Assembly: GCA_017558145.1 (NCBI GenBank)
Contig: JAFYWF010000116.1
Span: 4,415 to 68,414 of the forward strand
DNA from: Lachnospiraceae bacterium
GTDB lineage: Bacteria; Bacillota; Clostridia; Lachnospirales; Lachnospiraceae
Direction of reading: 5' to 3'
DNA length: 64,000 nucleotides
The notes under the pieces were generated by a model. That model made no database searches. It was given only the letters and a program-made list of their open reading frames with translations, and was not told the DNA's origin. Below, one piece after another: positions 14,842 through 62,497 of this stretch (positions within the stretch are counted from its first letter, which is position 1; each line of letters starts with the position of its first letter). The position numbers and the translations under genes are program-made.

Positions 14842-15954
14842 ATGGATAGAAAAATTGAACCTTATGAACTAAACAATCTAAATAATAAAAATACAAACTT
14901 TTCTCTACCCATCTCTGTATGTATTATCACTAAAAACGAGGAAAAATATATAGAAACCTGCTTAAATAAACTAAAAAAATATAATTGGGAAATCATTGTA
15001 ACCGATACCGGCTCTACAGATCGTACTGTAGATATCTGCAAGAAATATACAAACAAAATTTTTCATTTTGATTGGATTAACGATTTTGCTGCTGCCAGAA
15101 ACTTTTGTATTTCTAAAGCAAGCAACAATTGGATTTTATCCGTCGACAGTGATGAGTATTTGATCAATGAACAATCAGAGCAGGAATTATTAAAAATACT
15201 GACACCCTGCTTTTCTCATCCGGAATCTGCAGGTATGGTAGATATTCTTAATCCACAAACAAGTTCCGGACAATTAACCACAAGTAATGATCCTGTGGCA
15301 AGATTTTTCCACAAACAATATTACTCTTATGTTGGGAAAGTTCATGAACAACCTATGCCTGTCACAGAGCAAAAACCTTCCTATTTTAAATCACCTTTCA
15401 GACTTTACCATGAAGGTTATGCTAACCCGGAAATTTTACATAAAAAGGCTACACGTAACATTTCATTATTAAAAAATGAATTGGAAAAAATAACAAATGA
15501 TCCTTATTTATATTTTCAATTAGGACAAAGCTATCTATCATTAAACGATTATGAAAATGCCTATCTCATTTTCCAAAAAGGTCTTGAATTGGATGTAGAT
15601 CCAAACCTACAATATGTTAAAACTATGGTAACCTCCTATGGTTACACCATGCTTCATTTAAAAAAATACAACGAGGCTCTTTCTTTCGACTCTATCTACG
15701 ATACTTTTTCTAATTATGCAGACTTTGTCTTCCTTATGGGGCTTATTTATATGAATAATGCATTTTTTGATGAAGCAATACACCAATTTCTACATGCTAC
15801 CAAGTGTAATGAGTATTCCGTAGAAGGTATTAATAGCTATCTTGCTTACCATAATATCGGCGTTATTTATGAATGTGCTGGAATGGTTGATGAAGCAAAA
15901 AAATATTATGATATGAGCAAACTTGCTAAAGATAATGATAACTATGACAAATGA
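14842..15954 (+). CDS. GT2 glycosyltransferase with C-terminal TPR-like region
   Basis: ISVCIITKNEEKYIETCL...VTDTGSTDRT...DFAAARN...SVDSDE, then YFQLGQSYLSLNDYENAYLIFQKGLELD. It is a paralog of 50226..51302. Confidence 0.8.
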   Translation: MDRKIEPYELNNLNNKNTNFSLPISVCIITKNEEKYIETCLNKLKKYNWEIIVTDTGSTDRTVDICKKYTNKIFHFDWINDFAAARNFCISKASNNWILSVDSDEYLINEQSEQELLKILTPCFSHPESAGMVDILNPQTSSGQLTTSNDPVARFFHKQYYSYVGKVHEQPMPVTEQKPSYFKSPFRLYHEGYANPEILHKKATRNISLLKNELEKITNDPYLYFQLGQSYLSLNDYENAYLIFQKGLELDVDPNLQYVKTMVTSYGYTMLHLKKYNEALSFDSIYDTFSNYADFVFLMGLIYMNNAFFDEAIHQFLHATKCNEYSVEGINSYLAYHNIGVIYECAGMVDEAKKYYDMSKLAKDNDNYDK

Positions 15955-15967
15955 AGGGAATAAAACT

Positions 15968-17143
15968 ATGAAAATTCTAATGATGGAATGGCAAAGTTTC
16001 GGAAACGAAGATATGATTGCCGGATTTAAAGAATTAGGACATGAAGTTGTCACTATGCCTTTTACTAATGAAGAAATGCATCATAATAAAGAAATTGAAG
16101 AAAATATTGTAGGTAAAATCAAGGAATTTTCTCCTGACTTTGTTTTCTCGTTTAATTATTTTCCTATAATATCTCTTGCCTGCAAGCAAGTAGATATGAA
16201 ATATGTTTCCTGGATCTACGACAATCCTCTCGTATTACTTTATTCTTATACTGTTATTTATCCCGGAAACTACATTTTTCTTTTTGATAAAGAATTATAT
16301 ATGGAATTTCATAATTCCGGTATCCAAACCATATATTATATGCCTTTGGCAGCAAATACAGAACGTTTAAAACTTATGGAAAGTTCTGCAAAAGCAGATT
16401 TTTTTGAAAAAAGTAAATGGATGAACCAAGCAGACATCGCTTTTATCGGGTCACTCTACACCGAAAAACATCAATTTTATCAAAGACTAACAGGGATTAC
16501 ACCTTATACCAGAGGTTATTTGGAAGGAATTATGGCTGCTCAAAAACATGTTTATGGCTATAACTTTATTCAGGAAATGATGACTGCAGAAATTATGGAA
16601 GATATGTCAAAATTCCTACCTATGGAACCGGATCCCAGAAGCGTGGCTACGAAGGAATATCTTTTTGCCCAATATGTCATTAACCGACAAATTACTGCCA
16701 TGGAAAGAACAGAAATGCTAACTGCTATCGGCGAAAAATACCAATTTGACCTCTATACACCGGAAGAATCCTTAACACTTCCCGGTTGTATTAATCACGG
16801 AAAAGTTGACTATTATGACATGGCTCCCTTTGTATTTAAACATGCAAAAATCAATTTAAACATTACTCTTAGAAGTATTAAAAGCGGAATTCCTCTTCGA
16901 GCCTTTGATATCTTAGGTGCCGGTGGATTTTTACTTACCAATTATCAAACAGATTTTATGGACTGTTATATTCCGGGGGAAGATTTTGTTTACTACGAAA
17001 GCAAACAAGATTTATTAGATAAAATTGATTACTATTTAAATCATGATGATGAAAGAATTGCCATTGCAAAAAATGGTTTTGAAAGAACTGCCGCTAATCA
17101 TACCTATAAACATAGAATTGAAGAAATGCTGAGTTATTTTTAA
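15968..17143 (+). CDS. CgeB-family (DUF3880 + Glyco_trans_1_2-like) glycosyltransferase, copy 1
   Basis: ORF 15923..17143; ATG at 15968 follows GAAGGGA. Blocks shared with 17140..18357 and 61319..62497 are PLAANTER, DIAFIGSLY, KINLNITL, GIPLRAFDILGAGGF and DERIAIAKNG. Confidence 0.6.
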   Translation: MKILMMEWQSFGNEDMIAGFKELGHEVVTMPFTNEEMHHNKEIEENIVGKIKEFSPDFVFSFNYFPIISLACKQVDMKYVSWIYDNPLVLLYSYTVIYPGNYIFLFDKELYMEFHNSGIQTIYYMPLAANTERLKLMESSAKADFFEKSKWMNQADIAFIGSLYTEKHQFYQRLTGITPYTRGYLEGIMAAQKHVYGYNFIQEMMTAEIMEDMSKFLPMEPDPRSVATKEYLFAQYVINRQITAMERTEMLTAIGEKYQFDLYTPEESLTLPGCINHGKVDYYDMAPFVFKHAKINLNITLRSIKSGIPLRAFDILGAGGFLLTNYQTDFMDCYIPGEDFVYYESKQDLLDKIDYYLNHDDERIAIAKNGFERTAANHTYKHRIEEMLSYF

Positions 17144-18357
17144 ACATAACTCAGCATCTCTTTTATTATCATCCCTAAATCATAATTTCTTTTTAACTTT
17201 TCATAGCCATTTTGGGCAATCTGTTTTCGCTCCTCTTCATGCTCCAAATAATAAGCTACTTTTTCCACTAAATCCTCCATGGAGGAATACATAACCAAAT
17301 CTTCTCCATCCGTAAAATATTCTGCTATCTCCGGCTGATAATTGGTGATACAAAAACCACCACAGCTTAAAATATCAAATACACGTAAGGGAATCCCTGA
17401 TTCAATCGTTTTAGAGGTAATATTTAGATTAATTTTGCTATTGTGAAAAACATATGGCATCTCTTTTTCATAATTTACAAATCCTTTTTCTCGGATATTT
17501 AAACCATGCAAAAAAACTGGTAACGTGGAGCCGGAATATAAATCCACCTCAAAATGTTCTCCTAATACTCTTAATACCTTTTCTCTTTCTCTTGCAGACA
17601 CTTCCATACCCACAGTATCTGCGGCCATCTGAGCTAGATCCTGGTGATACATATCACCCAAACTAAGCTTGCATTTTTCTATGATTTCATTCATGATATC
17701 GTCGGGCAAAGCCTCTTTAATAAAATTATAACCATATACCTTTAGCTGAGATTCTACAAGACCGTCCGTAAATCCTTTGCAATAATCCGACAATACCACA
17801 TTCCGTAATCGATTCTTCTTTTCACTGTATAAATTACCTACAAATGAGATATCACTTTCATACTTCTTTTGAATTTCATCCTTTATCATTTTAGGATTAA
17901 TTTTTTCATTACTTAAATCTATACTTGTATTACTAAGGATTGTCACCAATCTTTCTGCATCTGCTGCCAAAGGAAAATGGATACAGTGCTTTGCTCCTAA
18001 CTGTTGCAAATACAAATTATACTTTCTGTCAAAACAGAAAATATAATTCATTTCGTTTCCAATTGTCTTAGAATATAAGGTATACATAGGACAATCATAT
18101 ATCCAGGACAAATAGGGAATTTGATTCATCTCACATAACATAGAGACCAAAGGAAAATAATCGAAACTAAATACTGCTTGAAACTTTTCTGCATGCAATA
18201 CTTGTAAAAATTCAAAAGCAAATTCTGCATCCGCATGATAGTCTTTTATTTTCTTTGCAAAAACACAATATTCTATTTTATTTTGCTTTAATATTTTTTC
18301 CAACCCGGGCTCACTATTGGAACCGAATTGGTAGAATAGTATTTTCTTCAAAATCAT
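17140..18357 (-). CDS. CgeB-family glycosyltransferase, copy 2 (convergent with copy 1, 4-nt overlap)
   Basis: It has the same conserved blocks: PLAADAER, DISFVGNLY, KINLNITS and GIPLRVFDILSCGGF. The C-terminus EMLSYV* compares with copy 1's EMLSYF*. Confidence 0.6.
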   Translation of the reverse strand: MILKKILFYQFGSNSEPGLEKILKQNKIEYCVFAKKIKDYHADAEFAFEFLQVLHAEKFQAVFSFDYFPLVSMLCEMNQIPYLSWIYDCPMYTLYSKTIGNEMNYIFCFDRKYNLYLQQLGAKHCIHFPLAADAERLVTILSNTSIDLSNEKINPKMIKDEIQKKYESDISFVGNLYSEKKNRLRNVVLSDYCKGFTDGLVESQLKVYGYNFIKEALPDDIMNEIIEKCKLSLGDMYHQDLAQMAADTVGMEVSAREREKVLRVLGEHFEVDLYSGSTLPVFLHGLNIREKGFVNYEKEMPYVFHNSKINLNITSKTIESGIPLRVFDILSCGGFCITNYQPEIAEYFTDGEDLVMYSSMEDLVEKVAYYLEHEEERKQIAQNGYEKLKRNYDLGMIIKEMLSYV

Positions 18358-18513: not shown

Positions 18514-19521
18514 CTATAAATTATTGATTTGTTCTTGGAATTGTTCTATACTTCCTGCTTCAATCGCAATTCTATGGAAGGATACTAAGACATTATCATC
18601 TTTCTCTTCGCTAATTCGTTCTGCAATATATTTTGGTAGTACGCCAAATTTTTCACATACTTCAAAAACCATAGCTTTTAGAGTTTCTGTCATTTGTGTA
18701 TCCTTTTTCTGCAGCTCGGCATCCAGGCTCTGCAGCTCAGCATCCTTACTCTGCAGCTCGGCATCCAAACTCTGCAGCTCAGCATTTAAACCCTGCAATT
18801 TTGAGTCTTTCTTCTGTAATTCATCAATCATATTCTTTAATTCTTCATCTTTTGCTTTTACCAGCTTATCGACAGACAGATAATGCATATATCTCGCCTC
18901 CACATCCCGATCTTTTTTTAAGATCTTAATTCGATTATGAATTTCTTTTAATTTTTCATTTGTGTTTTGTGCCACATATTCATCGGTAGAATTATTCAAA
19001 TAACCTAAAAAATCTACTAAAATTTTAGGAACTTCTTGCGTATTCTTACCTTTTGTGCTCAAAAAAATTCTTTTTGCACCATCATTTAAATGAATTTTTC
19101 TTTCCTCGCATTGCATTGTAAAAGTATATCGATATAATTCCTCATCAAAAGGATCAAAATTACAAATAAAAATAACATAAACCGGTTTTAAACTCTTATA
19201 ATCTTCACCTTTTTTCAAATTCCCAATATCAATTTGGGCTTGATAAAATCGACTTCTAAGAGGTAAATTATGCTCATTCTTGTTTTGCATTTCCAAATTA
19301 TAAGAAAGTTTGGTTACAGAATCTTTTGCATATACATCCAATCGAATATATTTTAATTCTGAGTTATACTTTTTTGTATACTCGACTTTTATATCCAACT
19401 CACCAATCTTTTCTTCAATGATACATTCCAACACCAATCGACATGTAACAGGATCCTCCAATGCCGCCGGAAAAAGAAACTCATCACTTAAATTAAGTTG
19501 CTGAATATTACTATTACTCAT
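18514..19521 (-). CDS. Rpn-family recombination-promoting nuclease / PD-(D/E)XK 'putative transposase', copy 1
   Basis: The N-terminal half (...IRLDVYAKDSVTKLSYNLEMQN...PLRSRFYQAQ...PVYVIFICNF) fits the PD-(D/E)XK transposase-like family. The C-terminal region is a coiled coil with heptad tandem repeats. Confidence 0.7.
   Translation of the reverse strand: MSNSNIQQLNLSDEFLFPAALEDPVTCRLVLECIIEEKIGELDIKVEYTKKYNSELKYIRLDVYAKDSVTKLSYNLEMQNKNEHNLPLRSRFYQAQIDIGNLKKGEDYKSLKPVYVIFICNFDPFDEELYRYTFTMQCEERKIHLNDGAKRIFLSTKGKNTQEVPKILVDFLGYLNNSTDEYVAQNTNEKLKEIHNRIKILKKDRDVEARYMHYLSVDKLVKAKDEELKNMIDELQKKDSKLQGLNAELQSLDAELQSKDAELQSLDAELQKKDTQMTETLKAMVFEVCEKFGVLPKYIAERISEEKDDNVLVSFHRIAIEAGSIEQFQEQINNL
18709..18798. 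repeat. 21-bp tandem repeat (4 full copies plus a partial one) inside the Rpn copy-1 coding region
   Basis: ctgcagctcRgcatccNNNct units at 18709, 18730, 18751 and 18772, with a partial copy at 18793. They encode (L/K)DAELQS heptads (LNAELQSLDAELQSKDAELQSLDAELQKKD). Confidence 0.9.
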
Positions 19522-19671: not shown

Positions 19672-20550
19672 CTACACCAATCCTCTTTCCCGATAATATT
19701 CCAAATAAGATCTATCCGGATCCATGAAAATCTCATTATGTGCAGAAGCCCCTTGTACCGGTGTCATATAATCACCATACAATAGCTCTAACACTTTCGT
19801 ATACTCTGCCGGTGCCGGTATCCTTAAATGCTCAAACGGAAGCTCGACAGTCTTTTCATACCATGACTTACTATATTTCCTGTTCATACCGTAAATGGCC
19901 GGTAAAATTAACCCTATTTCCGTAGCTTTATCATAACTGCTTACCAACAAAGCCTCAAACTGTCGAAAGCGATCCCTAATTGGCTTCTCCAATAAAGAAA
20001 TTAGCATATCATACGGTAAGAAAAACGGTGTATTTTTTTCCATTGCCTCTATTACTACTTCCGGACTGGAAATGGTCATCCAGATTTCTCTTTCCATTCG
20101 TTCATAAGGCGCATTCTCTTCCAGAAAAACACCATCTAATGGGAAAATGTCTATATAAATTCCCTGATGAGGTGCATCTTCTGTACAATATACTTCCTCA
20201 ATCGCTGTGGTATTTGTATTTCGAATCTTAGCAAAAGGAAACATCAAACTATCCGTGTATGCAGTCTGAAAAAAGAACGGTTCCCTGATTTCCGTTTCCA
20301 TAATTACTTTTAATTTTTCATAATCAGGTCTTGGCATACCAACATCCAAGTCATCATCCCAAGGAATAAATCCCTGATGACGAGCTGCACCTAGAAGAGT
20401 ACCATGTTCCAGATAATATCTCAAACCATGCTTTTTACAGATTTCATCTAAAAATTCTAATATCTCTAATTCCAAAGCCCATATTTTCTTTTGTTTTTTT
20501 GTAATAAGATAATCCCATCGTGTCTCTTCTTCAAAAAACTTCTTATCCAT
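19672..20550 (-). CDS. LicD-family phosphotransferase (CDP-alcohol/phosphocholine-type), copy 1
   Basis: LEHGTLLGAARHQGFIPWDDDLDVGMPRPDYEKL is the LicD signature. Confidence 0.85.
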   Translation of the reverse strand: MDKKFFEEETRWDYLITKKQKKIWALELEILEFLDEICKKHGLRYYLEHGTLLGAARHQGFIPWDDDLDVGMPRPDYEKLKVIMETEIREPFFFQTAYTDSLMFPFAKIRNTNTTAIEEVYCTEDAPHQGIYIDIFPLDGVFLEENAPYERMEREIWMTISSPEVVIEAMEKNTPFFLPYDMLISLLEKPIRDRFRQFEALLVSSYDKATEIGLILPAIYGMNRKYSKSWYEKTVELPFEHLRIPAPAEYTKVLELLYGDYMTPVQGASAHNEIFMDPDRSYLEYYRERGLV

Positions 20551-20636: not shown

Positions 20637-23210
20637 TTAACTTTCCTTCTTTAGTACATTCATCATAAATTCATGCACCTTCTGTCCACAGGTACCATCT
20701 AAATTAACGGCAATATCAGACAATTCTGTTAACTGCCTTTCTCTCACGTGTTCCAATCGACCCGACACAAAATCATCCATAAAACCTTCCATAGAAAATA
20801 CCCTGCTTTCTCTTCTGGCAAAAGCAGAATAACCTCGATTGATTCGTTCAAAACCATCTTCATTCTCTAACATTTTCTCCATGGATGTTTCAGATAACAT
20901 TGGATATTGAATATTATACTCTTCCGAATCCACTTTTAATTCTATCAACACATCATCAAAGGTACGCTGTATCCATAAAGTATTTTTATCTATCTGCTTT
21001 GCAAATCCGCTAACCATATAGTAGCTTGGATGATAATCATTGCAAGGTAAGTTTGCATCTACCCAAAGTTCTTTTGCACATAAAGAAACATTTCCTGTTA
21101 ACTTATCCACCTTTACCATTCCATTTGCAAATGCAGGTGTGGATATAATCCAATCTCCCATATCAAATAGTCTGTTATGAACCATACGCAAGCCGTCATA
21201 TCTGACATATAATCCTAATTCTGATGGCATTCTTATTTCCCACTCCTGATTGGAGCGACTATCCCATTTGATTATATTACCACTAGCACTTTCTGCAAGC
21301 CAGAAAACTCCATTGGAGCCGGTGATCGCTGAATAGGTATACTCCTGCTCTCCTACAGAGTATATCTTATGTTCTTTGCTACGCATATTAAAACATAAGA
21401 TACGATTCGTATAACAGGAAACCATATACAACATATTCTCATCTTGAACAAAACCACAAACATCCCACAAATACATATATTTTTCTTTTGGAATTTGCTG
21501 GCGCCAATCTTCTAAACATTTTGTATAAGCAGTCCACTGTTTTGTAATAGAACCATATTCCCAAATAGCCTCATTTTTATTTGGTAAAAAGAACCGACTT
21601 TCTTCATAAGAAACCATATCCTTAAATCGCAATAATTTCTTATTTTCTACATATTCTTTTGGTCCATAAGGTCTGAAAAATTCTTGTCTTTTGCAATCAT
21701 AACTAACTGATTGCCAAGCAATCTCCGGTATCATGTGTATTTGATTCTCAACGCTTGCCAAAGAACTATGACTAGTATTCCAATAGGGTGCTCCTTCATC
21801 TCTTCCCTCAAAGCAGATATCATTCCATTCCACTGATTTGGCATTTGTTCTTTCACCATTTACGGAAAAAAGTCCGTTGTAAGAAGACGAAACCATATAC
21901 CATTTTTCATTTACAAATTCCATATCTGCAATGCGTACTTTTCGCTTCCACAATTCATCCAATTCTCTATAAATAAAATTATTCATAAGAAAAATCGGTT
22001 TGCCCACAGCTCCAAATAAATTGATTACTGAGGTCCCTTCTTCTCCGATATATCCATCTACCACAGCTATGGTTCTCTCAATCTCCGGTGTATTGTCAAA
22101 AATTCCTATTTTTTCTTGTTCAAAATATGCTTTTAATATTTGATACTTTTCCAGCAATTGAGGCCGTAAAGAATGCATAGTAGCTTCCAATAAGGGATGC
22201 GGACGCCATACAATTGCAACTTCTTTGTGCTCCTTCACCCATTGAAATAAGACATAAAGCTTTTGTAAATACTGTGCTCCCTGTTGTAAAAAACAATTTA
22301 GACTGGTATTTAGCATCAAAGACTTCTTCCCTTGCAACGTAGCTTTCCACTCTTCGGGTATCCATACTTCTTTTCCTTGCTGACACATTCGAATGGCCTT
22401 ATCTAACTTAGGAGACCCTAAGGCTACAACTTTATCATAATAAAACATATCTTTGCAGCCTTCTTTAAACATAGGAGATTGTGCCACCATATAATCCATA
22501 TGAAAATAAGCCGACAACAACTTATGATCTTGCGCAATTGCTCCTGTCGTCACATAGTAAGGTACATATACCAATTTTCCTACATGCTTCTTCAACTCTG
22601 CAGAATAAAAATACGGATGTACACTAGTTACCAAATTTCTATTATCGTATGGGTTATGTATGTATGCCACATCCGGCTTTTCGTTTTCTAATGAATAATT
22701 CAAATAAGAAACGATTGGTACATGCGATGGAAATTTATCTCCATCATAGCAAACCACTGTTTCTTTCGTCTTGCCTTCATACCTATAATATGGAATCGGA
22801 ACTACCACGGCTTCGCAACATTCATCCCGATTGGCTTCCTGCCAGATACTTTCCAAACTATCCCACATCTCTGCTTTATAGGGAAAAAAGGCTATTTGAT
22901 AAGTTGCCGAAATATTCTCTACAAAATTCTTCACTTGAATGATGAATTCATCTAATACTCGCACTCTTGTTTCTAACACATACTCTTCCTGGCTGATCAA
23001 AAACAATTCTTCGCAATATTGCTCTAATAAGGAAACAGGTTGTTTTGTTAAAACTTGTTTTTCTAAAGTTTCACCCACAACAACAGCAGCCTGCTGGGAA
23101 TCCTGCAGGCTGTCCATCACGTCCAAAGTATTTTTTCCTAATAATTCACTATGCAACATTAACAAAGACTCTAAGATCTCTGTTAACTGCTTTTTCACAT
23201 GTTTTCTCAT
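20637..23210 (-). CDS. Large (857 aa) two-part protein: N-terminal TagB/TagF-like (weak) half plus unknown C-terminal ~430 aa (repeat/beta-rich)
   Basis: VALGSPKLD, SLMLNTS, IVWRPHPLL and VDGYIGEEGTSVINLFGAVGKPIF resemble the Glyphos_transf layout. The C-terminal half has recurring hydrophobic-G/N-x-hydrophobic strands (YNGLFSV, NRILCFN, GNIIKWD). The match is at pattern level only. Confidence 0.35.
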   Translation of the reverse strand: MRKHVKKQLTEILESLLMLHSELLGKNTLDVMDSLQDSQQAAVVVGETLEKQVLTKQPVSLLEQYCEELFLISQEEYVLETRVRVLDEFIIQVKNFVENISATYQIAFFPYKAEMWDSLESIWQEANRDECCEAVVVPIPYYRYEGKTKETVVCYDGDKFPSHVPIVSYLNYSLENEKPDVAYIHNPYDNRNLVTSVHPYFYSAELKKHVGKLVYVPYYVTTGAIAQDHKLLSAYFHMDYMVAQSPMFKEGCKDMFYYDKVVALGSPKLDKAIRMCQQGKEVWIPEEWKATLQGKKSLMLNTSLNCFLQQGAQYLQKLYVLFQWVKEHKEVAIVWRPHPLLEATMHSLRPQLLEKYQILKAYFEQEKIGIFDNTPEIERTIAVVDGYIGEEGTSVINLFGAVGKPIFLMNNFIYRELDELWKRKVRIADMEFVNEKWYMVSSSYNGLFSVNGERTNAKSVEWNDICFEGRDEGAPYWNTSHSSLASVENQIHMIPEIAWQSVSYDCKRQEFFRPYGPKEYVENKKLLRFKDMVSYEESRFFLPNKNEAIWEYGSITKQWTAYTKCLEDWRQQIPKEKYMYLWDVCGFVQDENMLYMVSCYTNRILCFNMRSKEHKIYSVGEQEYTYSAITGSNGVFWLAESASGNIIKWDSRSNQEWEIRMPSELGLYVRYDGLRMVHNRLFDMGDWIISTPAFANGMVKVDKLTGNVSLCAKELWVDANLPCNDYHPSYYMVSGFAKQIDKNTLWIQRTFDDVLIELKVDSEEYNIQYPMLSETSMEKMLENEDGFERINRGYSAFARRESRVFSMEGFMDDFVSGRLEHVRERQLTELSDIAVNLDGTCGQKVHEFMMNVLKKES

Positions 23211-24703: not shown

Positions 24704-24716
24704 ACTCTCTACCTCT

Positions 24717-47660: not shown

Positions 47661-47661
47661 T

Positions 47662-48812: not shown

Positions 48813-48833
48813 TCTCCTACAGGAGGTTTGCTT

Positions 48834-50177: not shown

Positions 50178-50225
50178 ATTTTCTAAATTATTTTATTTCT
50201 ATTTTTACATTTATGGAGAAATATT

Positions 50226-51302: not shown

Positions 51303-51316
51303 AGGAGGATTCTTCT

Positions 51317-53650: not shown

Positions 53651-53676
53651 ATATCGGAAGGTTTTTTTATTACTTA
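53651..53676 (-). promoter_or_regulatory. Sigma-D/sigma-28-type promoter of the flagellin gene (TAAG-N15-CCGATAT)
   Basis: Minus strand: TAAG (rc 53673-53676), 15-nt spacer, CCGATAT (rc 53651-53657). The -35 context GGTTAAG is the same as in copy L2. Confidence 0.7.
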
Positions 53677-55010: not shown

Positions 55011-56069
55011 TTATTTCATTCCTAAAACATTTTTATTCCAAAGAATCTTACATCCATCTTGATATAAAGAATAATCTTCTAAGTGCAAGGCTTTTTCTAA
55101 TATACTATAATATTTTGAGGATGTAGAAAATCCGGTTGCATACTTTCTATACAACTCAACAGTCAAAAAGAATATAGCAGTTTTAACCATTTCTTCCATT
55201 TGATTTGTTCGAATGTAATTTAGTGCAATTTGATCTAATAATTTTTCATATATTTTTATGTCCATAGGAAGATTTAATTTTTCTCTCTCTTCCATCATTA
55301 ACTCCGTAATCCAATAGGTATCAATACACTTAATATTCCTTCCCGCATTTGCCGTGATTCCCTTTGCATTTTGGCGGTACCAATATACGGTATTATCATA
55401 TTTGATCACTTTATGACACCTGGGAGCAATCAAATAACCCATAATAGAATCTTCATACCAGTATCCTTCCGGAAAATCTACATGTTGCAATAAGTGACTC
55501 TTTATTATCTTTCCCCATACATAACCGGATACTTGATTTTGATCTATTTCATTCATTGTTTTTGTATCATCTGATTTTAATTCCATGATTTCTGTTATAT
55601 CAGAAAATGTTTTAAAATCACCTTCCACCATGTCTGCATCGTATTCCATTGCAATCTGTAGCATTTCTTCTATGGCATTTTCTGCCAGAATATCGTCCGC
55701 ATCTACAAACATATAATATCTGCAATCCATTTTCTGCATTCCACGATTACGGGATCCGGAAAACCCTTTGTTTTCCTGATGGATAATTTTTATATTATCA
55801 TATTTTGTATATGATTCTAATATCTCTCCTGTTCGGTCTGTAGATCCATCATTGATACATACCACTTCCCATTGATACCTCGTCTTTTGATTCACAAGAG
55901 ATTGCAGGCACTCTTCCAGATATTTTTCTTCGTTATAACAGGGAACCACTACTCGCAAATCTATTGCTACTTCTTCCATTTTTTTACTTGTTATGGAAGA
56001 GGATTGAGGTTTAGGGGATAGTGTATTCAGAAAATTTCTTACAAACAACAAATCATTTTCATTTAACAT
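55011..56069 (-). CDS. GT2 glycosyltransferase
   Basis: LRVVVPCYNEEKYLEECLQSLVNQKTRYQWEVVCINDGSTDRT...FVDADD. Confidence 0.85.
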   Translation of the reverse strand: MLNENDLLFVRNFLNTLSPKPQSSSITSKKMEEVAIDLRVVVPCYNEEKYLEECLQSLVNQKTRYQWEVVCINDGSTDRTGEILESYTKYDNIKIIHQENKGFSGSRNRGMQKMDCRYYMFVDADDILAENAIEEMLQIAMEYDADMVEGDFKTFSDITEIMELKSDDTKTMNEIDQNQVSGYVWGKIIKSHLLQHVDFPEGYWYEDSIMGYLIAPRCHKVIKYDNTVYWYRQNAKGITANAGRNIKCIDTYWITELMMEEREKLNLPMDIKIYEKLLDQIALNYIRTNQMEEMVKTAIFFLTVELYRKYATGFSTSSKYYSILEKALHLEDYSLYQDGCKILWNKNVLGMK

Positions 56070-56070
56070 A

Positions 56071-57033
56071 TCAAATACCCAACTTCTTTAGTATCTCCAT
56101 ACATTTTTCCAGAGTCATACTTAATTCCAATTTTTCTTGATTCAGCTTTTCAATAGTGTCATTCATAAATCCACTGTCCACTTCATTTAACACCACATCT
56201 TCTAATAATTGTATATAAAATGGAGTCAGCTTGGCATACTGCCACCAGAATTTCTCCGTATTGAAATGCAATGCTTCATGCTGCCATGGTTTTCTTCCTG
56301 CAAAATGAATGATAGAAGTATTTTCTTTTACCCAATCGTAATCAAGTCCTTCATTAAAGGCAAGTTTTGCGAAAAGATTATATTTTTTTTCATCCAAATA
56401 ACGTACATCACCATGATATACATAATTTAATAAATCTTGATCTTGTGCTCCTATATTTAATTTTAGACCCATTTGAACAAAAAATTCCAAATTTACATTT
56501 TCTCTCATCTTATCCAAATTCATCAAAAGAATTCCGGCATTAAAGTATTGAAAATTCTCTTGTTTCATATGTTCTTGGAATAATTCATACTGCTTCTGCA
56601 TTAATCCTCCGGTTAATACACTCATATCCGGACAAACACACAAAGATTTTCCCTGAAAATCCGTATGATAGAAATCCCAAATAGACTCCTTCACAATCAC
56701 ATCTACATCCAGGTATAAAATTCGATTTATTTCTTTTGGCAATATATCCGTTAATGCCAAACGATAATATACTTCCAACGGCCATTCCTCTGTGTGAGGA
56801 AGCTCTTGTGGAAACCATTCTTTTTCCATTTTCACCAAATATATTATTTGCTTATATTTTTCTGCCAAATCATGAAAGTGCTGTAACTCTTTCTCTGCTA
56901 CTTGTCCATACAGTACAAAAACCTGTACCTCTCTATCTTTATGATTTTCAAATACCGATGTCAGCATAACGCATGCATATTTTACAAATTTTTCGTTTAC
57001 CGCAATGGCAATATTCATTCTCTTTTGTTCCAT
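56071..57033 (-). CDS. GT8 glycosyltransferase (paralog of the N-domain of 44459..46495)
   Basis: MNIAIAVNEKFVKYACVMLTSVFENH...LYLDVDVIV...FNAGILLMNL. Confidence 0.85.
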   Translation of the reverse strand: MEQKRMNIAIAVNEKFVKYACVMLTSVFENHKDREVQVFVLYGQVAEKELQHFHDLAEKYKQIIYLVKMEKEWFPQELPHTEEWPLEVYYRLALTDILPKEINRILYLDVDVIVKESIWDFYHTDFQGKSLCVCPDMSVLTGGLMQKQYELFQEHMKQENFQYFNAGILLMNLDKMRENVNLEFFVQMGLKLNIGAQDQDLLNYVYHGDVRYLDEKKYNLFAKLAFNEGLDYDWVKENTSIIHFAGRKPWQHEALHFNTEKFWWQYAKLTPFYIQLLEDVVLNEVDSGFMNDTIEKLNQEKLELSMTLEKCMEILKKLGI

Positions 57034-57088
57034 TTTTTATCCCGCTTTTTTATAATTTGTATTTTATGTCAGCCAAATTATAATTTCT

Positions 57089-58216
57089 TTATATTATTAT
57101 ATCTTTCAACTGTTCTGTTATCACTTGGGTACTGAAATGATCTTCATAGACATATCTTCCTGCCTGAGCAATAGCAGATAAATTATTTTTTTCTGCAATT
57201 ACAAGTAAAATTCTTTTTAACAGTTCCTGCACATTTTCACTTGGGAAAACAAAGCCATTCACACAATCTTGCATGAACTTGGAAATACCCGTAGCATCTG
57301 ATACAATACACAACTTTTGAAACATCATTGCTTCCACAATTGTGGTTGGTGTTGCGTCTACTCTGGAAGGCGCCAAAACACAATCGCAAATCTCGTACCA
57401 TTCATACACCTGTGATTTATCTATACTTCCTAAAAATTCTGCATTAGGTAACATTTCTATGGCTTTACAAATAGTTTCTCCATATTCTTTTTGTCCCGGC
57501 AAGGAATAACCACAAAAATAAAATTTGGATTTTTTCTGAAATTCTTCCGGTAACATCGTAATAGCTTTAATCAGAAGATCCTGTCCCTTAATACTGGTTA
57601 GTGCTGCCGGGATAAAAAATATAACCTGCTCATTTTCTTTTACTATAAATTCTTTCTTTCTTTTATCCTGAATTGGCATAGAAAGGAGTTTTATATTTTT
57701 ACCATACAGTTCCTGAACTCCTTCTTGTACCGCTGGTGTAACACCTGCAATTTGTATGTTGGAACTTAACAAACTCAGATTTAAAAAATCCTTCTGCATT
57801 ATTTCCAACTGTGTTTTTGTTTCATGAAACCACCATAACACTTTCGTTTTAGTATTTAAAAAATAATACACATAATAATAACAGCCTGCAGAATTAACAA
57901 ATATTAAATCAAAGGATTCTCTTAAAACCTCTCGATATTCCTCAGAGCAATATACATATGGGCGGATAATAATATTGACACCCATTTGTAACATTTTTTC
58001 TCTATATTCACCATCCTCAGAAGAAATCATATATATTTCATACTTCTCCCAAAGAGCCAGCTCTAACAATTCTTTCATTACTGTCATAGCTCCGCTTAAT
58101 CTTAAGTCAGGAACAATAACCAGCATTTTCTTTTCCTTTTCCGGTAATTTTGAATCATAGATTTGACTTGCTTCTTTGGAAAGCTTTACCATCAAGTCTT
58201 CTCTTGGAATGCTCAT
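57089..58216 (-). CDS. GT4 (group 1) glycosyltransferase
   Basis: GT-B layout. The C-terminal domain has LAPSRVDATPTTIVEAMMFQKLCIVSD (the E-x7-E-like region). Confidence 0.7.
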   Translation of the reverse strand: MSIPREDLMVKLSKEASQIYDSKLPEKEKKMLVIVPDLRLSGAMTVMKELLELALWEKYEIYMISSEDGEYREKMLQMGVNIIIRPYVYCSEEYREVLRESFDLIFVNSAGCYYYVYYFLNTKTKVLWWFHETKTQLEIMQKDFLNLSLLSSNIQIAGVTPAVQEGVQELYGKNIKLLSMPIQDKRKKEFIVKENEQVIFFIPAALTSIKGQDLLIKAITMLPEEFQKKSKFYFCGYSLPGQKEYGETICKAIEMLPNAEFLGSIDKSQVYEWYEICDCVLAPSRVDATPTTIVEAMMFQKLCIVSDATGISKFMQDCVNGFVFPSENVQELLKRILLVIAEKNNLSAIAQAGRYVYEDHFSTQVITEQLKDIII

Positions 58217-58374: not shown

Positions 58375-60126
58375 ATGAAAATACAAAAGTTAAAGAATCA
58401 AATATTGGATTCTATAAATGAGCAAAATTATGTAAAGGCATTAGAATATTATCTTCACTACGAAAAGGAAGGGTATCCCTTTGATGATTCCATTGCCATT
58501 TTAGCCGGTAGTATTTTTCATTATTTTGGAGAACGTGAAAATGCCTGGGATGCTATTTCTAAAGGACTTTCCTATAACCATGCCAACTATGAATTATATG
58601 TTATGTTGGGAAATTACTACTTAGAGCAAAATTTAATACAGGCCTATTTGTGCTTTGAAAATGCTTTGTTTTTTTGCGACAACGAAGACGATAAAAATGT
58701 AATTCGCTCTTTAATGGAACAGTTATCCACAGAATATCAGGTACCTGTCCCTAAAACATCCTTCGTGATTCTTTCCTATAATTTATTAGAATACACAAAA
58801 AAATGTATTGAAAGTATTCGTTCCTCTACACCTGAAAGTGCCAGAGAAATTATTGTTGTTGATAACGCTTCTCTAGATGGCAGTGTAGAATGGCTTCGCA
58901 TGCAATCGGATATCATCCTGATTGAAAATAAGGATAATGTTGGCTTTCCGGCCGGCTGCAACCAGGGAATAACAGCATCCTCTCCGAATACTGATATTTT
59001 CTTATTAAACAATGATACAATTGTTACTCCCAATTCTCTTTTTTGGCTTCGTATGGGATTATATGAAAATGATAATGTTGGTTCCACAGGAAGTGTTTCC
59101 AATTACGTTGCTAACGGTCAGCAAATAGAAAAAGATTTTACGTCCATAGAAGATTGGCTTTCTTTTTCAGATACCAATAATATTCCTATGAAATCTCCTT
59201 ACGAAGAAAAATTATGCTTAGTAGGATTTGCTTTATTGATAAAAAGAAGTGCTCTAAATGAAATTGGTCTTTTGGATGAAATCTTTACTCCGGGCAATTG
59301 TGAAGATGTAGATTATGGACTTCGTATGTTAAAAGCCGGTTATCACAATATTTTGTGTAAGAACAGCTTTATACTGCATTTCGGAAGTAAATCCTTTAGA
59401 AAAGATGATCAGAAGTATTTTAATCTTTTAGAAAATAATATTTTAAAACTAAATTCAAAATGGAATATGGATATTTCTAAATATATGCATCCATCTGTTG
59501 AACTATTAGATATGATATCTTGTAAACAAGATACGCCCATAAATATTTTAGATATTAATTGTGGATGTGGTGCTCTCATGGCCAAAATAAAAAGTTGGTA
59601 TCCTAATTCTACTATTTATGGTATTGAAGTTGATTCCGAAGCTACCGCTATTGCTAGGGCTTTTGGACAGGTGATTTGCAATGATATAGAAGAATTGGAA
59701 TTATCGTGCCCGGAAAATTATTTTGATTATTGTATCATAGGAGATGCTTTAGAACATTTACCTAATCCCAAAAAATTCTTAGAAATTTTACGTAGATACA
59801 TAAAACAAAATGGACATATCATTTTATCCATACAAAATGTAAAGCATTGGTCTGTATTACTTCCTTTACTGACAGAAGATGCATTTTCATATTCTAATAA
59901 TGGACTTACAGATGATACACCTTCTAATATTTTTACTCTTCGAGAAGTATTAAAGCTCCTTTTATTGTGTGGGTACGAAGTTGAAAATTATAATTTTACT
60001 ACTTTAGGTGAACCAACTGTAAAAGAACAGGAAATGATTCAGAATCTTGTTACGTATATGAAGCAACCAAATATTTCCACTTTTATGGCTCATAAATATG
60101 TGATACTTGCAAAAGTAGTCGATTAG
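58375..60126 (+). CDS. Triple fusion: N-terminal TPR - GT2 glycosyltransferase - C-terminal class I SAM methyltransferase
   Basis: TPR-like YVKALEYYLHYEK...YELYVMLGNYYLEQNLIQAYLCFENAL. GT2: SFVILSYNLLEYTKKCIESI...VVDNASLDGS...LLNNDT. MTase: ILDINCGCGALM...IIGDALEHLPNPKKFLEILRRYIKQNGHIILS. Confidence 0.8.
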   Translation: MKIQKLKNQILDSINEQNYVKALEYYLHYEKEGYPFDDSIAILAGSIFHYFGERENAWDAISKGLSYNHANYELYVMLGNYYLEQNLIQAYLCFENALFFCDNEDDKNVIRSLMEQLSTEYQVPVPKTSFVILSYNLLEYTKKCIESIRSSTPESAREIIVVDNASLDGSVEWLRMQSDIILIENKDNVGFPAGCNQGITASSPNTDIFLLNNDTIVTPNSLFWLRMGLYENDNVGSTGSVSNYVANGQQIEKDFTSIEDWLSFSDTNNIPMKSPYEEKLCLVGFALLIKRSALNEIGLLDEIFTPGNCEDVDYGLRMLKAGYHNILCKNSFILHFGSKSFRKDDQKYFNLLENNILKLNSKWNMDISKYMHPSVELLDMISCKQDTPINILDINCGCGALMAKIKSWYPNSTIYGIEVDSEATAIARAFGQVICNDIEELELSCPENYFDYCIIGDALEHLPNPKKFLEILRRYIKQNGHIILSIQNVKHWSVLLPLLTEDAFSYSNNGLTDDTPSNIFTLREVLKLLLLCGYEVENYNFTTLGEPTVKEQEMIQNLVTYMKQPNISTFMAHKYVILAKVVD

Positions 60127-60238: not shown

Positions 60239-61057
60239 ATGATTAGTGTTATTATACCTACCTATAATAGAGCCGGTACCATATTAAGATCTGTAAACAG
60301 TGTTTTAAATCAAACTTATAAAGATTTGGAACTTATTATTATTGATGATGGTTCTACAGACAATACAAAAAAATTAATAGAGGAAATGGAAGACGATAGA
60401 ATCCGTTATATTTATCTTGGAGCCAATGGCGGTGCTTCCAATGCTCGTAACATTGGTGCTTCTTATGCTTTAGGAGATTGGATTGCTTTTCAGGATAGTG
60501 ATGATGCATGGCGTCCTGAAAAACTGGAAAAACAAATGATATTGGCCAATGAACATCCGGAGTATTCTTTAATTTATTCCTCTTTTGAGTATCATGATTT
60601 AGATGGAACATCTACCGGTTTTCCCGCAAGACCATACACCGGTATTATGGAAAATGATATGTATTCTTCTCTTCTTCTTTGTAATGTGATTGGTTGTCCA
60701 ACGATGCTAATCAAAAGAGATGCTTTTTCACAATCGGGAGGATTTGATACCAATTACCATAGTTTGGAAGATTGGGAATTTGTCATTCGATTTTCTAAAA
60801 ATAATTTGATTGGTTTTGTACCGGATTATCTTATGGATGTTTATTTATTAAACAACGGTGTATCCTCTCGTGTAGCACCTTATTATGAAAGTCGATGTCG
60901 TATGCTTGCAGAATATCGAGAGGATATTATGAAATTAGGCTTATTTGATACTATTGTTTTAGATATTTTTAATCGAGCCAAAGATTCCGGCGTTCAAAAA
61001 CAGGTACAGGACATGATGATGCTTTACCTTCAAACAATTTCTCCGAAGAATATATAA
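60239..61057 (+). CDS. GT2 glycosyltransferase
   Basis: MISVIIPTYNRAGTILRSVNSVLNQTYKDLELIIIDDGSTDNT...FQDSDD. Confidence 0.85.
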   Translation: MISVIIPTYNRAGTILRSVNSVLNQTYKDLELIIIDDGSTDNTKKLIEEMEDDRIRYIYLGANGGASNARNIGASYALGDWIAFQDSDDAWRPEKLEKQMILANEHPEYSLIYSSFEYHDLDGTSTGFPARPYTGIMENDMYSSLLLCNVIGCPTMLIKRDAFSQSGGFDTNYHSLEDWEFVIRFSKNNLIGFVPDYLMDVYLLNNGVSSRVAPYYESRCRMLAEYREDIMKLGLFDTIVLDIFNRAKDSGVQKQVQDMMMLYLQTISPKNI

Positions 61058-61234
61058 TATAATCATAGATTTTTTATGTTTGATTAACAAAACTCCTCGA
61101 TTTATTAATCTAATGCCTTATTTTAATGACATTGATTTCTAAACCGAGGAGTTTTTGTTTTCATTATTATTTCATAATCCTTATCATTATGGCATGATTC
61201 TACATCTTTACTTTAATTCTCTTTAATATTATAT

Positions 61235-61330
61235 GATTTGATGATTATACCTTAATTTTTTTACTATAACCCGATTCGATGACTCTACCCTAATTCATTT
61301 TACTATTACACAATTTGATTACTCTACCAC
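61235..61330. repeat. ~38-bp tandem repeat (2.5 copies) reiterating the stop-codon region of the CgeB-like gene
   Basis: R1 gatttgatgattataccttaattttttt actataac (61235-61270). R2 gattcgatgactctaccctaattcatttt actattac (61273-61309). R3 atttgattactctaccac (61313-61330) contains the real stop (61319-61321). Confidence 0.75.
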
Positions 61331-62497
61331 TCTTCGTATCATATCCACCATTCGATTGACATAACCATGGTATTCTTTTACTTTTTTATAACCATTCAAC
61401 GCAATTTTTACTCTCTCATCCTCATGGGTCAAATAGTAAAAACATTTATCCACCAATTCTTCTAAACTACTATAAGCTTCCAAATCTACTCCAATATCAA
61501 ATAATTCCGGAAGCTCTGCTTGAAAATTCGTCATACAAAATCCACCACAACCCATAATATCAAAGATACGAAGTGGTAAACCTGTCTGGATTGGTTTGAT
61601 GGTCATGTTTAAATTTATTTTACTTAAGTGAAATATTTTAGGCATTTCTGTCAGAGTTTTCACTCCTTCATGAACATGTACATTTTTTAACTTAGAAGTA
61701 TCACTTCTGGTGTACAAATCTACATTAAAATATTGCGCCAATGTATTCAGTGTTCGAATACGGTCCTTTTCTGCTGCCTCCATCCCAAGATAAGAATGGG
61801 CTACTATAAATTTATCGGTATCTAATAGACTATCTTTTGGAGAATAAAAGTTAGAATCTGCCTTTTTTATGTCTTTAACTATTTCTTGTGTTATGGTTTC
61901 TTCCATAAAGTTATATCCCATAACCTTTAAAGATGCTTCTACCACACCGTCAATATAGCCTATCGTAAATTCTGATAATTTATCACCCATTTTTCTCAAT
62001 GGATTTTTTTCGATATAAAGAGAACCTACAAAAGAAATATCACTACTAAATTTTTCTTTCTCACTTTTTTTAATCTCTGCAATTACTTTGTCAAATCTTT
62101 CTGTAGCTGCTGCCAAAGGTAAATAAAAAACACCATCCGGATTCAAGGGATGAATTGCTTCATATTGTGCCCGATCAAAAAGAAAAATTCGATTGGTACT
62201 ATGTTGTACTGATCTGGAAAATAATTCCGGAACCGGACAGTCCACTGTCCAACAAAGGTATTTCGTTCCATAAATCTGACAGATATCTGCAATAGATGGG
62301 AAAAAATTGATACTAAAAACAAACATTGGATGGTATTGATCCAATGCCTGTTTTACTAATTTTACTTGATCGGAAGGTAGGAGACCCTTCTGATCAATTT
62401 CTGTTGTTTCTTCTATCACATTTAGCCCCATTTTTTGAAAAGCTTCTACAATATCGGGCTCACAAATACTGCCATAACGGTAAATTAATATGTTCAC
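61319..62497 (-). CDS. CgeB-family glycosyltransferase, copy 3; GTG start
   Basis: PLAAATER, DISFVGSLY, KINLNMTI, GLPLRIFDIMGCGGF and DERVKIALNG. Confidence 0.6.
   Translation of the reverse strand: MNILIYRYGSICEPDIVEAFQKMGLNVIEETTEIDQKGLLPSDQVKLVKQALDQYHPMFVFSINFFPSIADICQIYGTKYLCWTVDCPVPELFSRSVQHSTNRIFLFDRAQYEAIHPLNPDGVFYLPLAAATERFDKVIAEIKKSEKEKFSSDISFVGSLYIEKNPLRKMGDKLSEFTIGYIDGVVEASLKVMGYNFMEETITQEIVKDIKKADSNFYSPKDSLLDTDKFIVAHSYLGMEAAEKDRIRTLNTLAQYFNVDLYTRSDTSKLKNVHVHEGVKTLTEMPKIFHLSKINLNMTIKPIQTGLPLRIFDIMGCGGFCMTNFQAELPELFDIGVDLEAYSSLEELVDKCFYYLTHEDERVKIALNGYKKVKEYHGYVNRMVDMIRRVVE

Follow-up and report, generated by a model that had tools for sequence, protein, structure and literature searches.

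A 48-kb gene island around a flagellin gene in a Lachnospiraceae bacterium probably directs cytoplasmic flagellin glycosylation

Introduction

Flagellar glycosylation islands are already known, as are the flagellin glycosyltransferases of Clostridium in which a glycosyltransferase family 2 (GT2) domain is joined to tetratricopeptide repeats (TPR) and, on the flagellin of Clostridioides difficile, phosphodiester chemistry carried out by a TagF-like enzyme. Here we describe an island of ~48 kb (positions 14842 to 62497) that surrounds a flagellin gene in a 64,000-nucleotide stretch of DNA (referred to below as the window) from an uncultured Lachnospiraceae bacterium of gut or rumen, and compare it with these systems. 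We conclude that the locus is probably a SigD-controlled island for the O-glycosylation of flagellin in the cytoplasm, with phosphodiester-linked substituents.

The type A locus of C. difficile (CD0240-CD0244) makes a flagellin O-glycan without nonulosonic acid that is started by a GT2-type enzyme under SigD control (PMC10714395, PMC3865298), extended by a TagF-like enzyme through a phosphodiester from a cytidine diphosphate (CDP) donor and then methylated (PMC10714395). This TagF-like enzyme, CD0244, resembles both uridine diphosphate-N-acetylglucosamine (UDP-GlcNAc) 2-epimerases and TagF, and was proposed to transfer phosphothreonine from CDP-threonine to the GlcNAc on flagellin (PMC10714395). 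The Lachnospiraceae island appears to share these traits. It differs from the type A locus, which has five genes and adds one sugar, in its 32 glycan genes and in the addition of LicD, CgeB-like GT-B proteins, polyol-type CDP-donor pathways and a fusion of a TagF-type domain to a beta-propeller. In Listeria monocytogenes, the glycosyltransferase domain of GmaR transfers GlcNAc to flagellin, which the TPR domain was proposed to recognise (PMC9638930), and both GmaR and the GT2-TPR enzymes predicted in Clostridium are soluble, are encoded beside the flagellin gene and act directly on flagellin in the cytoplasm. The combination of GT2 and TPR has served as the criterion for calling flagellin glycosyltransferases in Clostridium, whose flagellar hypervariable regions hold 2-89 genes and include types without nonulosonic acid that use GT2-TPR enzymes (PMC13317340).

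The glycosylation islands of Clostridium, Campylobacter and Geobacillus are variable, transposase-peppered blocks of sugar genes near flagellin genes, as is the island described here. Most of them, however, are built around Maf and pseudaminic or legionaminic acid and are found between flgB and fliD, whereas our island has neither Maf nor such acids, stands apart from other flagellar genes and contains no phase-variable homopolymer tract in the style of Campylobacter (none of at least 7 nt of G or C). The predicted chemistry also recalls the wall teichoic acid machinery (TagF/TarF, TagD and LicD), in which the same families serve for CDP-alcohol activation and phosphodiester transfer. Unlike that machinery, the island has no TagO/TagA/TagB-type primer, TagGH exporter or LCP ligase, and its enzymes are predicted to be soluble and encoded behind flagellar promoters.

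Results and discussion

Soluble glycan enzymes surround a flagellin gene

The window corresponds to positions 4872-68871, in the same orientation, of an 86.5-kb metagenome contig in ENA (ERZ27256885 k141_1505537). An island protein is 100% identical to a protein of a Lachnospiraceae metagenome-assembled genome (locus tag IKW30_12720), and the nearest flagellins among GTDB species representatives (60-73% identity) are nearly all from Lachnospiraceae, including Acetatifactor, Kineothrix, Butyrivibrio and Lacrimispora. All 37 open reading frames (ORFs) of at least 100 aa between positions 14842 and 62497 were scanned with Pfam. A single flagellin was found, with glycosyltransferase operons on both sides, and at 286 aa it is as short as a first reading made from the DNA letters without database searches (the sequence-only reading) had described it. 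The central loop of this flagellin (aa 142-201, 60 aa) is 40% Ser/Thr, the highest fraction among 117 flagellins, given that the 116 related proteins have a median of 0.22 and a maximum of 0.33. The loop is the presumed acceptor.

The sequence-only reading had counted 17 glycosyltransferase genes, and Pfam returned identical numbers, namely eight GT2, two GT8, four GT4-like/GT-B and three CgeB-like proteins (Glyco_trans_1_2 plus DUF3880). Two of the GT2 domains are fused to TPR repeats and one to a methyltransferase. Also borne out were two LicD proteins, one clear TagF-like transferase with a remote second (the 857-aa protein in Table 1), three methyltransferase domains, of which two are clear and one (in the 779-aa protein) is weak and under the Pfam cut-off, and a trio resembling WbpB, WbpE and WbpD that consists of a GFO/IDH/MocA (GFO) oxidoreductase, a DegT aminotransferase and a hexapeptide acetyltransferase. 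Pfam additionally identified an FGGY kinase, an iron-containing alcohol dehydrogenase (Fe-ADH), an NTP_transf_3 protein, two TagD-like cytidylyltransferase domains, two GFO domains beyond the trio, one GDPD domain and xylose-isomerase-like TIM barrels. Each of the 32 glycan ORFs is intact, full length and complete in its domains.

The absence of export and polymerisation genes, noted in the sequence-only reading, held up when every ORF was checked with hidden Markov models: no flippase, polymerase or priming transferase was found among the 37, and there was no match to Wzx/Wzy, ATP-binding cassette (ABC) transporters or primers of the Bac_transf or MraY type. A polyprenyl-phosphate initiating transferase (Bac_transf, MraY/WecA type) was not found in the island, nor was a polytopic membrane protein. 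Kyte-Doolittle hydropathy revealed no convincing transmembrane segment in any of the 37 products, while two controls outside the island, a histidine kinase (6011) and a six-segment membrane protein (11344), scored strongly. Flippase, polymerase and ABC exporter genes were likewise absent from window position 1 to ~15 kb past the right edge of the island. Nothing sizeable is hidden between the island genes, because the intergenic gaps are all < ~300 bp; intergenic DNA makes up 6.8% of the island. Finally, none of the 37 ORFs had a Pfam match to Maf (MAF_flag10/DUF115), to a NeuB/PseI/LegI synthase or to a synthetase for CMP-activated nonulosonic acid, the closest relatives of nonulosonic-acid genes being the DegT aminotransferase and the acetyltransferase, which have sub-threshold PseC-like and NeuD-like scores.

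SigD-type promoters precede the flagellin gene and three glycan operons

Four sites of the form TAAR-N15-17-CCGATAT had been read as promoters, one at the flagellin gene and three at glycan operons. A search of the 64 kb returned exactly four such sites, at the implied positions, all four intergenic and all four oriented toward the next gene. Dinucleotide shuffles contained a mean of 0.31 sites, and none of 300 shuffles contained four or more. We also examined 79 flagellin loci from Lachnospiraceae, taking 10 kb to the left and right of the flagellin gene, and annotated their 1344 ORFs by similarity to the island proteins. The same motif precedes the flagellin start in 62 of the 79 loci, at a median distance of 123 nt. 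Most of the other sites in these loci precede ORFs with FlaG-, FlgK-, FlgL-, FliD- or FlgM-like N-termini, and a few precede homologues of the island CgeB-like, GT2-TPR, TagF-like, NTP-transferase and 857-aa proteins. The island motif also agrees with the mapped SigD promoter of C. difficile fliC, TAAA-N18-CCGATAA (PMC3865298). Based on this placement across the 79 loci and the match to the mapped promoter, we take the motif to be the late flagellar (SigD/FliA) promoter of the clade. The 19 of 37 island genes that lie behind such sites would then be co-regulated with late flagellar genes, as judged from the motif. A scan for sigma-70 promoters gave no enrichment relative to shuffles, and operons were not defined by it.

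We noted one further regulatory feature. A hairpin with a 10-bp stem and a T-run (41517-41539, minus strand) is located between the SigD-type promoter at 41645-41619 and the FGGY start at 41472, and is for that reason assigned to the 5´ leader of the FGGY operon, where it could be an attenuator or leader structure.

Two GmaR-like proteins are candidate initiating enzymes

The two GT2-TPR proteins (358 and 370 aa) are 46% identical to each other and both end after the TPR region. GmaR (22ao_A) was the top PDB sequence match for the first (E 2e-31) as well as for the second (E 1e-28), in both cases over ~190 residues with the DxD region aligned, and the next match was the peptide S-glycosyltransferase SunS. 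Like GmaR, the island proteins begin with a GT2 domain that carries a DxD motif and continue into TPR repeats; they are also predicted to be soluble, and their genes lie near a flagellin gene. GmaR, however, a bifunctional glycosyltransferase and MogR antirepressor, has 637 aa and carries C-terminal linker and antirepressor domains (PMC9638930) that are missing from the island proteins, and it adds a single GlcNAc, whereas the island has ~15 further glycosyltransferases. These sequence comparisons indicate that the island proteins are GmaR-like and not GmaR orthologues.

The fusion of GT2 to TPR is a hallmark of Gram-positive flagellin glycosylation that does not involve nonulosonic acids. The statement in the sequence-only reading that the usual hallmarks of flagellin glycans are absent is therefore true for Maf and nonulosonic acids and incorrect for GT2-TPR, which is present twice. 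By homology, the island appears to encode flagellin-directed protein glycosyltransferases of this type.

Island gene families accompany flagellins across Lachnospiraceae

Glycan families of the island type flank the flagellin in 62 of the 79 related loci. CgeB-like genes are the most consistent neighbours, found in 57 of the loci (107 of the 1344 ORFs); 24 times a CgeB-like gene is immediately downstream of flagellin, 22 of them co-directional, and in 21 loci it is the sole recognisable glycosyltransferase gene. LicD genes are present in 30 loci, directly downstream of flagellin in 12 cases, and GT2-TPR genes in 21. In an Acetatifactor locus (L005), the order GT2-TPR, cytidylyltransferase-GFO fusion, LicD is kept and convergent on flagellin, with 51-75% identity to the island proteins, and GFO-GDPD and TagF-like genes are also present. 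What sets the island apart is the number of glycosyltransferase genes within 10 kb of the flagellin, which is 10, where the 55 full-length loci have a median of 3 and at most 7. The island is built of modules that travel with flagellin genes across the family, and is the extreme case. The sequence-only reading had proposed to compare whether the island always travels with this flagellin. The gene families are linked to flagellins across the 79 loci. None of these loci shares flank synteny with the island, and for this reason no empty insertion site could be demonstrated.

In four of the loci (L027, L030, L034 and L073) the flagellin is followed directly by three or four LicD genes. Two of these, L027 and L034, have no recognisable glycosyltransferase gene within 10 kb; in L030 and L073 the only ones are CgeB-like and lie farther downstream. 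Flagellin may in such cases be modified with phospho-alcohols directly, or the enzymes for its glycan may be encoded at another site.

Nothing relevant emerged when the literature was searched for CgeB or LicD in combination with flagellin, or for glycosylated flagellins of Lachnospiraceae. In the literature searched we found no description of a Lachnospiraceae-wide pairing of flagellin with CgeB-like and LicD genes, of a family that fuses a TagF-type domain to a propeller, or of an island of comparable size and composition without Maf and nonulosonic acids. The island was found to be the largest instance of a clade-wide system that has seemingly not been described.

CgeB-like proteins

CgeB of Bacillus subtilis is a glycosyltransferase of spore crust maturation. 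The three CgeB-like proteins of the island, which share 33-35% identity, have the same pair of Pfam domains and the same soluble GT4-like GT-B fold, and like CgeB presumably act on a protein-borne glycan without a lipid carrier. They differ in their genomic partner, a flagellin gene with a flagellar promoter motif instead of spore-coat genes, and the orthologues of the island protein form a tight family of 391 aa. For the first CgeB-like protein there are at least 6629 homologues; the 120 best matches share 68-88% identity with it and have ~391 aa, and its orthologues come from gut and rumen metagenomes. The mechanically called ORF begins with a TTG at 15923 and overlaps the upstream gene. Since the orthologues have 391 aa and residues 1-12 are disordered in the AlphaFold (AF2) model, the true start is probably the ATG at 15968, giving a product of 391 aa. 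The model has a predicted local distance difference test score (pLDDT) of 88 and, by Foldseek, a complete GT-B fold of the GT4 type, while a PDB sequence search returned nothing useful. A DUF3880 glycosyltransferase is also present in a C. acetobutylicum neighbourhood with a Maf-type (MAF_flag10) protein (PMC4000134).

LicD, TagF-type and donor-pathway enzymes

The remaining gene content suggests a logic of CDP-activated alcohol or polyol donors combined with a 3-acetamido sugar. None of the pathway enzymes reaches an above-threshold equivalog in NCBIfam, for which reason the sugar and polyol identities (a 3-acetamido sugar, a pentitol phosphate, an inositol-type route from IolG- and IolE-like scores) remain guesses. 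Methylation and phosphodiester substituents are reasonable predictions at the family level, given the precedent of the TagF-like CD0244 (PMC10714395).

The 857-aa protein encoded next to the first LicD gene had no direct match in Pfam, NCBIfam or PDB sequence searches. At least 2680 homologues make up its family in Lachnospiraceae-type genomes; most carry the annotation hypothetical, and many likewise lack a direct Pfam match. Of 33 sampled members, 11 match Glyphos_transf (PF04464, best E 1.4e-6) and 12 match a Vgb_lyase propeller. The AF2 model (pLDDT 91.5) resembles GT-B folds of UDP-GlcNAc 2-epimerases as well as beta-propellers in Foldseek; these matches, like those of the CgeB-like model, are generic (GT-B, propeller) and not informative on the acceptor. 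The GT-B superfamily of UDP-GlcNAc 2-epimerases also contains TagF. On the basis of the model, we consider the protein a candidate second soluble TagF-type CDP-alcohol phosphotransferase, whose propeller may bind its substrate, and the combination of GT-B and propeller a candidate new domain-architecture family. Homologues adjoin flagellins in L009, L036, L043, L047, L069, L070 and L079.

Table 1. Features of the island and of the left end of the window, with strand and supporting evidence (E, E-value).
Feature	Position	Strand	Evidence or remark
Mob_Pre relaxase	660-1448	-	Mobilisable element
PemK/MazF-like toxin, ~85-aa N-terminal extension	2951-3535	-	Mobilisable element
Tyrosine integrase, 505 aa	3594-5111	-	Mobilisable element
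GT2-TPR protein 1, 370 aa, candidate initiating O-glycosyltransferase	14842-15954	+	Pfam Glycos_transf_2 + TPR
CgeB-like GT-B 1	15923-17143	+	Pfam Glyco_trans_1_2 + DUF3880
CgeB-like GT-B 2	17140-18357	-	Pfam; 35% identical to paralogue 1
PD-(D/E)XK (PDDEXK_2) transposase-like/Rpn-like	18514-19521	-	Pfam E 9e-15
LicD-family phosphotransferase 1	19672-20550	-	Pfam LicD E 3e-44
857-aa protein: helical N-terminus, TagF/epimerase-type GT-B, C-terminal beta-propeller	20637-23210	-	AF2, Foldseek
HTH_3/Peptidase_M78 (ImmA/IrrE-type) protein	23260-24339	-	Pfam
Weak HigB-like ORF, 123 aa	24332-24703	-	Within island
779-aa protein: weak N-terminal methyltransferase-like region, C-terminal TagD-like cytidylyltransferase	24844-27183	-	Pfam CTP_transf_like E 4e-19, Methyltransf_23 E 6e-5 (sub-cut-off); NCBIfam glycerol-3-phosphate cytidylyltransferase-like (sub-cut-off)
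GT2 glycosyltransferase, 442 aa	27204-28532	-	Pfam E 3e-27
GT-B (GT4-like), N-terminal Rossmann-like extension	28652-30124	-	Pfam Glycos_transf_1 E 1e-7
NeuD/PglB-type hexapeptide N-acetyltransferase	30142-30708	-	Pfam; NCBIfam NeuD-like, below cut-off
DegT aminotransferase	30711-31841	-	Pfam; NCBIfam PseC/DegT-like, below cut-off
GFO/IDH/MocA sugar 3-dehydrogenase-like	31853-32929	-	Pfam; NCBIfam UDP-GlcNAc 3-dehydrogenase-like E 1e-33, below curated cut-off
S-adenosylmethionine (SAM)-dependent methyltransferase	32952-33893	-	Pfam Methyltransf_11 E 1e-9
Two GT4-type glycosyltransferases	33926-35296, 35403-36548	-	Pfam; first in operon behind promoter at 36674
SigD/sigma-28-type promoter TAAA-N17-CCGATAT	36647-36674	-	99 nt before GT4-led nine-gene operon
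Terminator-like hairpin	36702-36729	-	Closes FGGY-to-TagF operon
TagF-like phosphotransferase	36741-38003	-	Pfam Glyphos_transf PF04464 E 8.5e-46; NCBIfam TarF-like E 3e-18
NTP_transf_3 nucleotidyltransferase	38028-38762	-	Pfam; predicted CDP-alditol module
Fe-ADH	38765-39913	-	Pfam; predicted CDP-alditol module 36741-41472
FGGY xylulokinase-like kinase	39922-41472	-	Pfam; NCBIfam best match xylulokinase, 267 bits against cut-off of 380
SigD-type promoter TAAG-N16-CCGATAT	41619-41645	-	147 nt before FGGY gene (FGGY-to-TagF operon)
GFO oxidoreductase fused to GDPD	41666-43462	-	Pfam; NCBIfam IolG-like, GDPD below cut-off; operon 41666-46495
Xylose-isomerase-like TIM barrel	43517-44449	-	Pfam; operon 41666-46495
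GT8 fused to TIM barrel	44459-46495	-	Pfam; operon 41666-46495
SigD-type promoter TAAA-N17-CCGATAT	46567-46594	+	35 nt before GT2 of the operon at 46629
Operon convergent on flagellin: GT2 (46629), LicD 2 (47832), cytidylyltransferase-GFO (48828), GT2-TPR protein 2 (50226), GT2 (51317)	46629-52360	+	Pfam
Flagellin, 286 aa, D0/D1 only	52635-53495	-	Pfam Flagellin_N + Flagellin_C only
SigD-type promoter TAAG-N15-CCGATAT	53651-53676	-	156 nt before flagellin gene
Transposase_31/YhgA-like (Rpn family)	53797-54717	-	Pfam E 4e-5; directly upstream of flagellin promoter
Operon: GT4 (57089-58216), GT8 (56071-57033), GT2 (55011-56069)	55011-58216	-	Pfam
GT2 fused to SAM methyltransferase	58375-60126	+	Pfam; homologues in 8/79 related loci
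GT2	60239-61057	+	Pfam; homologues in 19/79 related loci
CgeB-like GT-B 3, right island edge	61319-62497	-	Pfam; at most 63% identity to L030 and L046 homologues

Proposed pathway

The sequence-only reading had favoured cytoplasmic protein glycosylation over a wall polymer, given a flagellin-centred locus with SigD-type promoters and no export genes. The placement of the motif across the 79 loci, the two GmaR-like GT2-TPR proteins, the linkage of CgeB-like, LicD and GT2-TPR genes to flagellins and the Ser/Thr-rich loop now support this view independently. From the gene content, the lack of membrane proteins, the promoter motif, the homology to GmaR and the family-wide linkage to flagellin, all directly established, we infer as follows the acceptor, the chemistry, the sequence of reactions, and how many glycans there are and how large.

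A sigma factor of the SigD/FliA class would transcribe the flagellin gene together with at least three glycan operons, and soluble enzymes would modify Ser/Thr residues of the flagellin loop in the cytoplasm, prior to flagellar type III export. One or both of the GmaR-like GT2-TPR enzymes would put the first sugar onto the protein, with the TPR repeats probably recognising flagellin, and the CgeB-like GT-B proteins as well as GT2, GT4 and GT8 enzymes would extend it; the sugars they add probably include a 3-acetamido sugar from the dehydrogenase, aminotransferase and acetyltransferase trio. The LicD- and TagF-type enzymes, one of the latter carrying the fused beta-propeller, would attach alcohol or polyol groups through phosphodiesters, drawing on CDP donors supplied within the island by the kinase, Fe-ADH, nucleotidyltransferase and cytidylyltransferase-GFO fusions, and the methyltransferases would cap some residues. 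The modified flagellin would exit via the flagellar export apparatus. As assembly takes place on the protein and export is flagellar in this scheme, no lipid carrier, flippase, polymerase or ABC exporter would be needed.

That the glycan must therefore be unusually large, as the sequence-only reading concluded, does not follow from the gene count. A single large glycan is not established, since there are two divergent initiators and three divergent CgeB-like paralogues, about half of the genes stand behind SigD-type promoters, mobile and toxin-antitoxin insertions interrupt the block, and glycosylated flagellin must pass the narrow flagellar channel. Several moderate or heterogeneous glycans fit at least as well as one large glycan, and our expectation is a heterogeneous glycan, or at least two glycan types, instead of one giant chain.

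Points against the proposal and alternative explanations

Several observations weigh against flagellin glycosylation by the island. The locus is known from a metagenome contig, and no further flagellar gene was found in the portions of this 86-kb contig examined. The remaining 18 of the 37 genes have no recognisable SigD-type promoter, including those in the left 10 kb and in the right-hand operons. In the related loci, flagellin loops are not richer in Ser/Thr where more glycosyltransferase genes lie close by (Spearman rho -0.22). For the 857-aa protein, the relationship to TagF is remote, and an hhalign comparison of its family with the TagF-like protein of the island gave a probability of 5%, which is not significant. 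TagF, LicD, GT4 and GT2 enzymes are, furthermore, equally typical of teichoic acid and capsule loci, for which exporters could be encoded elsewhere in the genome.

One alternative, which we judge unlikely, keeps flagellin as the target but takes the island as a mosaic of redundant, partly decayed or stacked modules in which few enzymes act and the glycan is small. Interruption of the island by Rpn/PD-(D/E)XK transposase-like genes and a toxin-antitoxin-like pair is in line with this explanation, as are the two initiators and the three CgeB-like paralogues, and the flagellar regions of Clostridium hold 2-89 genes and vary between strains (PMC13317340). However, none of the 32 glycan ORFs shows decay, the paralogues are too divergent (33-46% identity) to be recent duplicates, SigD-type promoters are retained by three separate operons, and the acceptor loop is unusually rich in Ser/Thr.

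We consider it quite improbable that the whole block or part of it, above all the half lacking SigD-type promoters, serves to build a capsule or a teichoic-acid-like wall polymer on a lipid carrier. The flagellin gene would then be no more than embedded in the block, and genes for a priming transferase and an exporter would lie at another site. The TagF-like, LicD, cytidylyltransferase, GT4, GT2 and GT8 families and the WbpB/E/D-like trio are classic for such polymers, the promoterless genes would be accommodated, and a flagellar variable region of C. sporogenes was reported to have cell-envelope genes between flagellin genes (PMC13317340). Yet no membrane protein, primer, flippase, polymerase or ABC exporter was found in the 48 kb or the examined flanks, the operons with the TagF-like and LicD genes are those behind SigD-type promoters, and the families at the promoterless left end (GT2-TPR, CgeB-like, LicD and the TagF-propeller protein) are neighbours of flagellins in other genomes.

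Many Lachnospiraceae sporulate, and mother-cell glycosylation requires no flippase. A role of the CgeB-like proteins and their associated enzymes in glycosylating the spore surface from within the mother cell, comparable to that of B. subtilis CgeB in the spore crust, is nonetheless very unlikely. Although three proteins carry the CgeB-type Pfam pair and this explanation would also account for the missing exporters, CgeB-like genes are directly downstream of and co-directional with flagellin in many related genomes, have the flagellar promoter motif in some loci, and have no spore-coat genes nearby in the Pfam-scanned window (sporulation promoters were not searched for).

We also set aside a general O-oligosaccharyltransferase system or an S-layer system, as there is no oligosaccharyltransferase, lipid-carrier primer or flippase.

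Wider implications

Beyond the flagellin glycosylation proposed for this island, we raise, tentatively and without expecting it to hold in full, the possibility that Lachnospiraceae have a flagellin-decoration system of their own, with a conserved soluble CgeB-like GT-B protein as its signature and teichoic-acid-like phosphodiester polyol units. In such a system, the CgeB-like proteins would possibly join Maf and GT2-TPR as a third class of flagellin glycosyltransferase, and soluble LicD and TagF-propeller enzymes would add polyol units in the cytoplasm. If this is true, the island would be the extreme case, in which a dense glycan-phosphate coat on a flagellin that consists of D0/D1 only would replace the missing outer domains and would change what TLR5 and antibodies encounter on a major antigen of the gut. 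Among bacterial antigens in the mammalian gut, the flagellins of Lachnospiraceae are some of the dominant ones, and antibodies to them have been noted in Crohn's disease. Should these flagellins be routinely and variably coated with sugars and phosphodiester-linked groups, recombinant unmodified flagellins would miss part of the immune-visible surface, and differences between the islands of individual strains could account for variable immunogenicity. The enzymes of the soluble, protein-directed kind (GT2-TPR, CgeB-like, TagF-propeller and LicD) would then also be new tools for glycoengineering, for which the linkage across genomes supplies concrete candidate genes.

Insertions and flanking genes

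Four non-glycan ORFs of the island were not mentioned in the sequence-only reading: two of the Rpn/PD-(D/E)XK type (at 18514 and 53797), a HigB-like ORF (24332) and a helix-turn-helix (HTH)/M78 protein (23260). The 857-aa ORF, which lacks a direct family match, was not singled out in it either. Of the four, the first is a probable mobile or recombination element, judged from its sequence to have no glycan role. Rpn/PD-(D/E)XK families occur beside flagellins in several related genomes (L031, L062, L064 and L069), with the Transposase_31/YhgA-like family adjoining them in the last three, and these genes may drive recombination and variability at flagellin loci. Near the HigB-like and HTH/M78 genes, a perfect 16-bp palindrome (24716-24750) overlaps a sigma-70 promoter that is close to consensus (TTGACA-17-TACAAT, 24773-24745, minus strand), and the segment from 23260 to 24773 looks like an autoregulated toxin-antitoxin or immunity module.

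The island limits proposed initially, 14842 and 62497, proved correct. A carboxyltransferase and an HpcH aldolase are found on the left, and Dabb, HAD and housekeeping genes on the right for at least 15 kb. Base composition does not set the island apart, the G+C content being 0.30-0.36 throughout. Further left are a PilZ protein, Fur/rubrerythrin genes, a two-component system and, at the left end of the window (660-5111, minus strand), a small mobilisable element with a relaxase, a toxin-like protein and an integrase. The gene for the PilZ-domain protein (10712-11335) is directly before one whose product (11344-12000) has roughly six hydrophobic segments and matched nothing significantly in Pfam; the two could be a cyclic di-GMP-linked pair, a few kb from the flagellin island.

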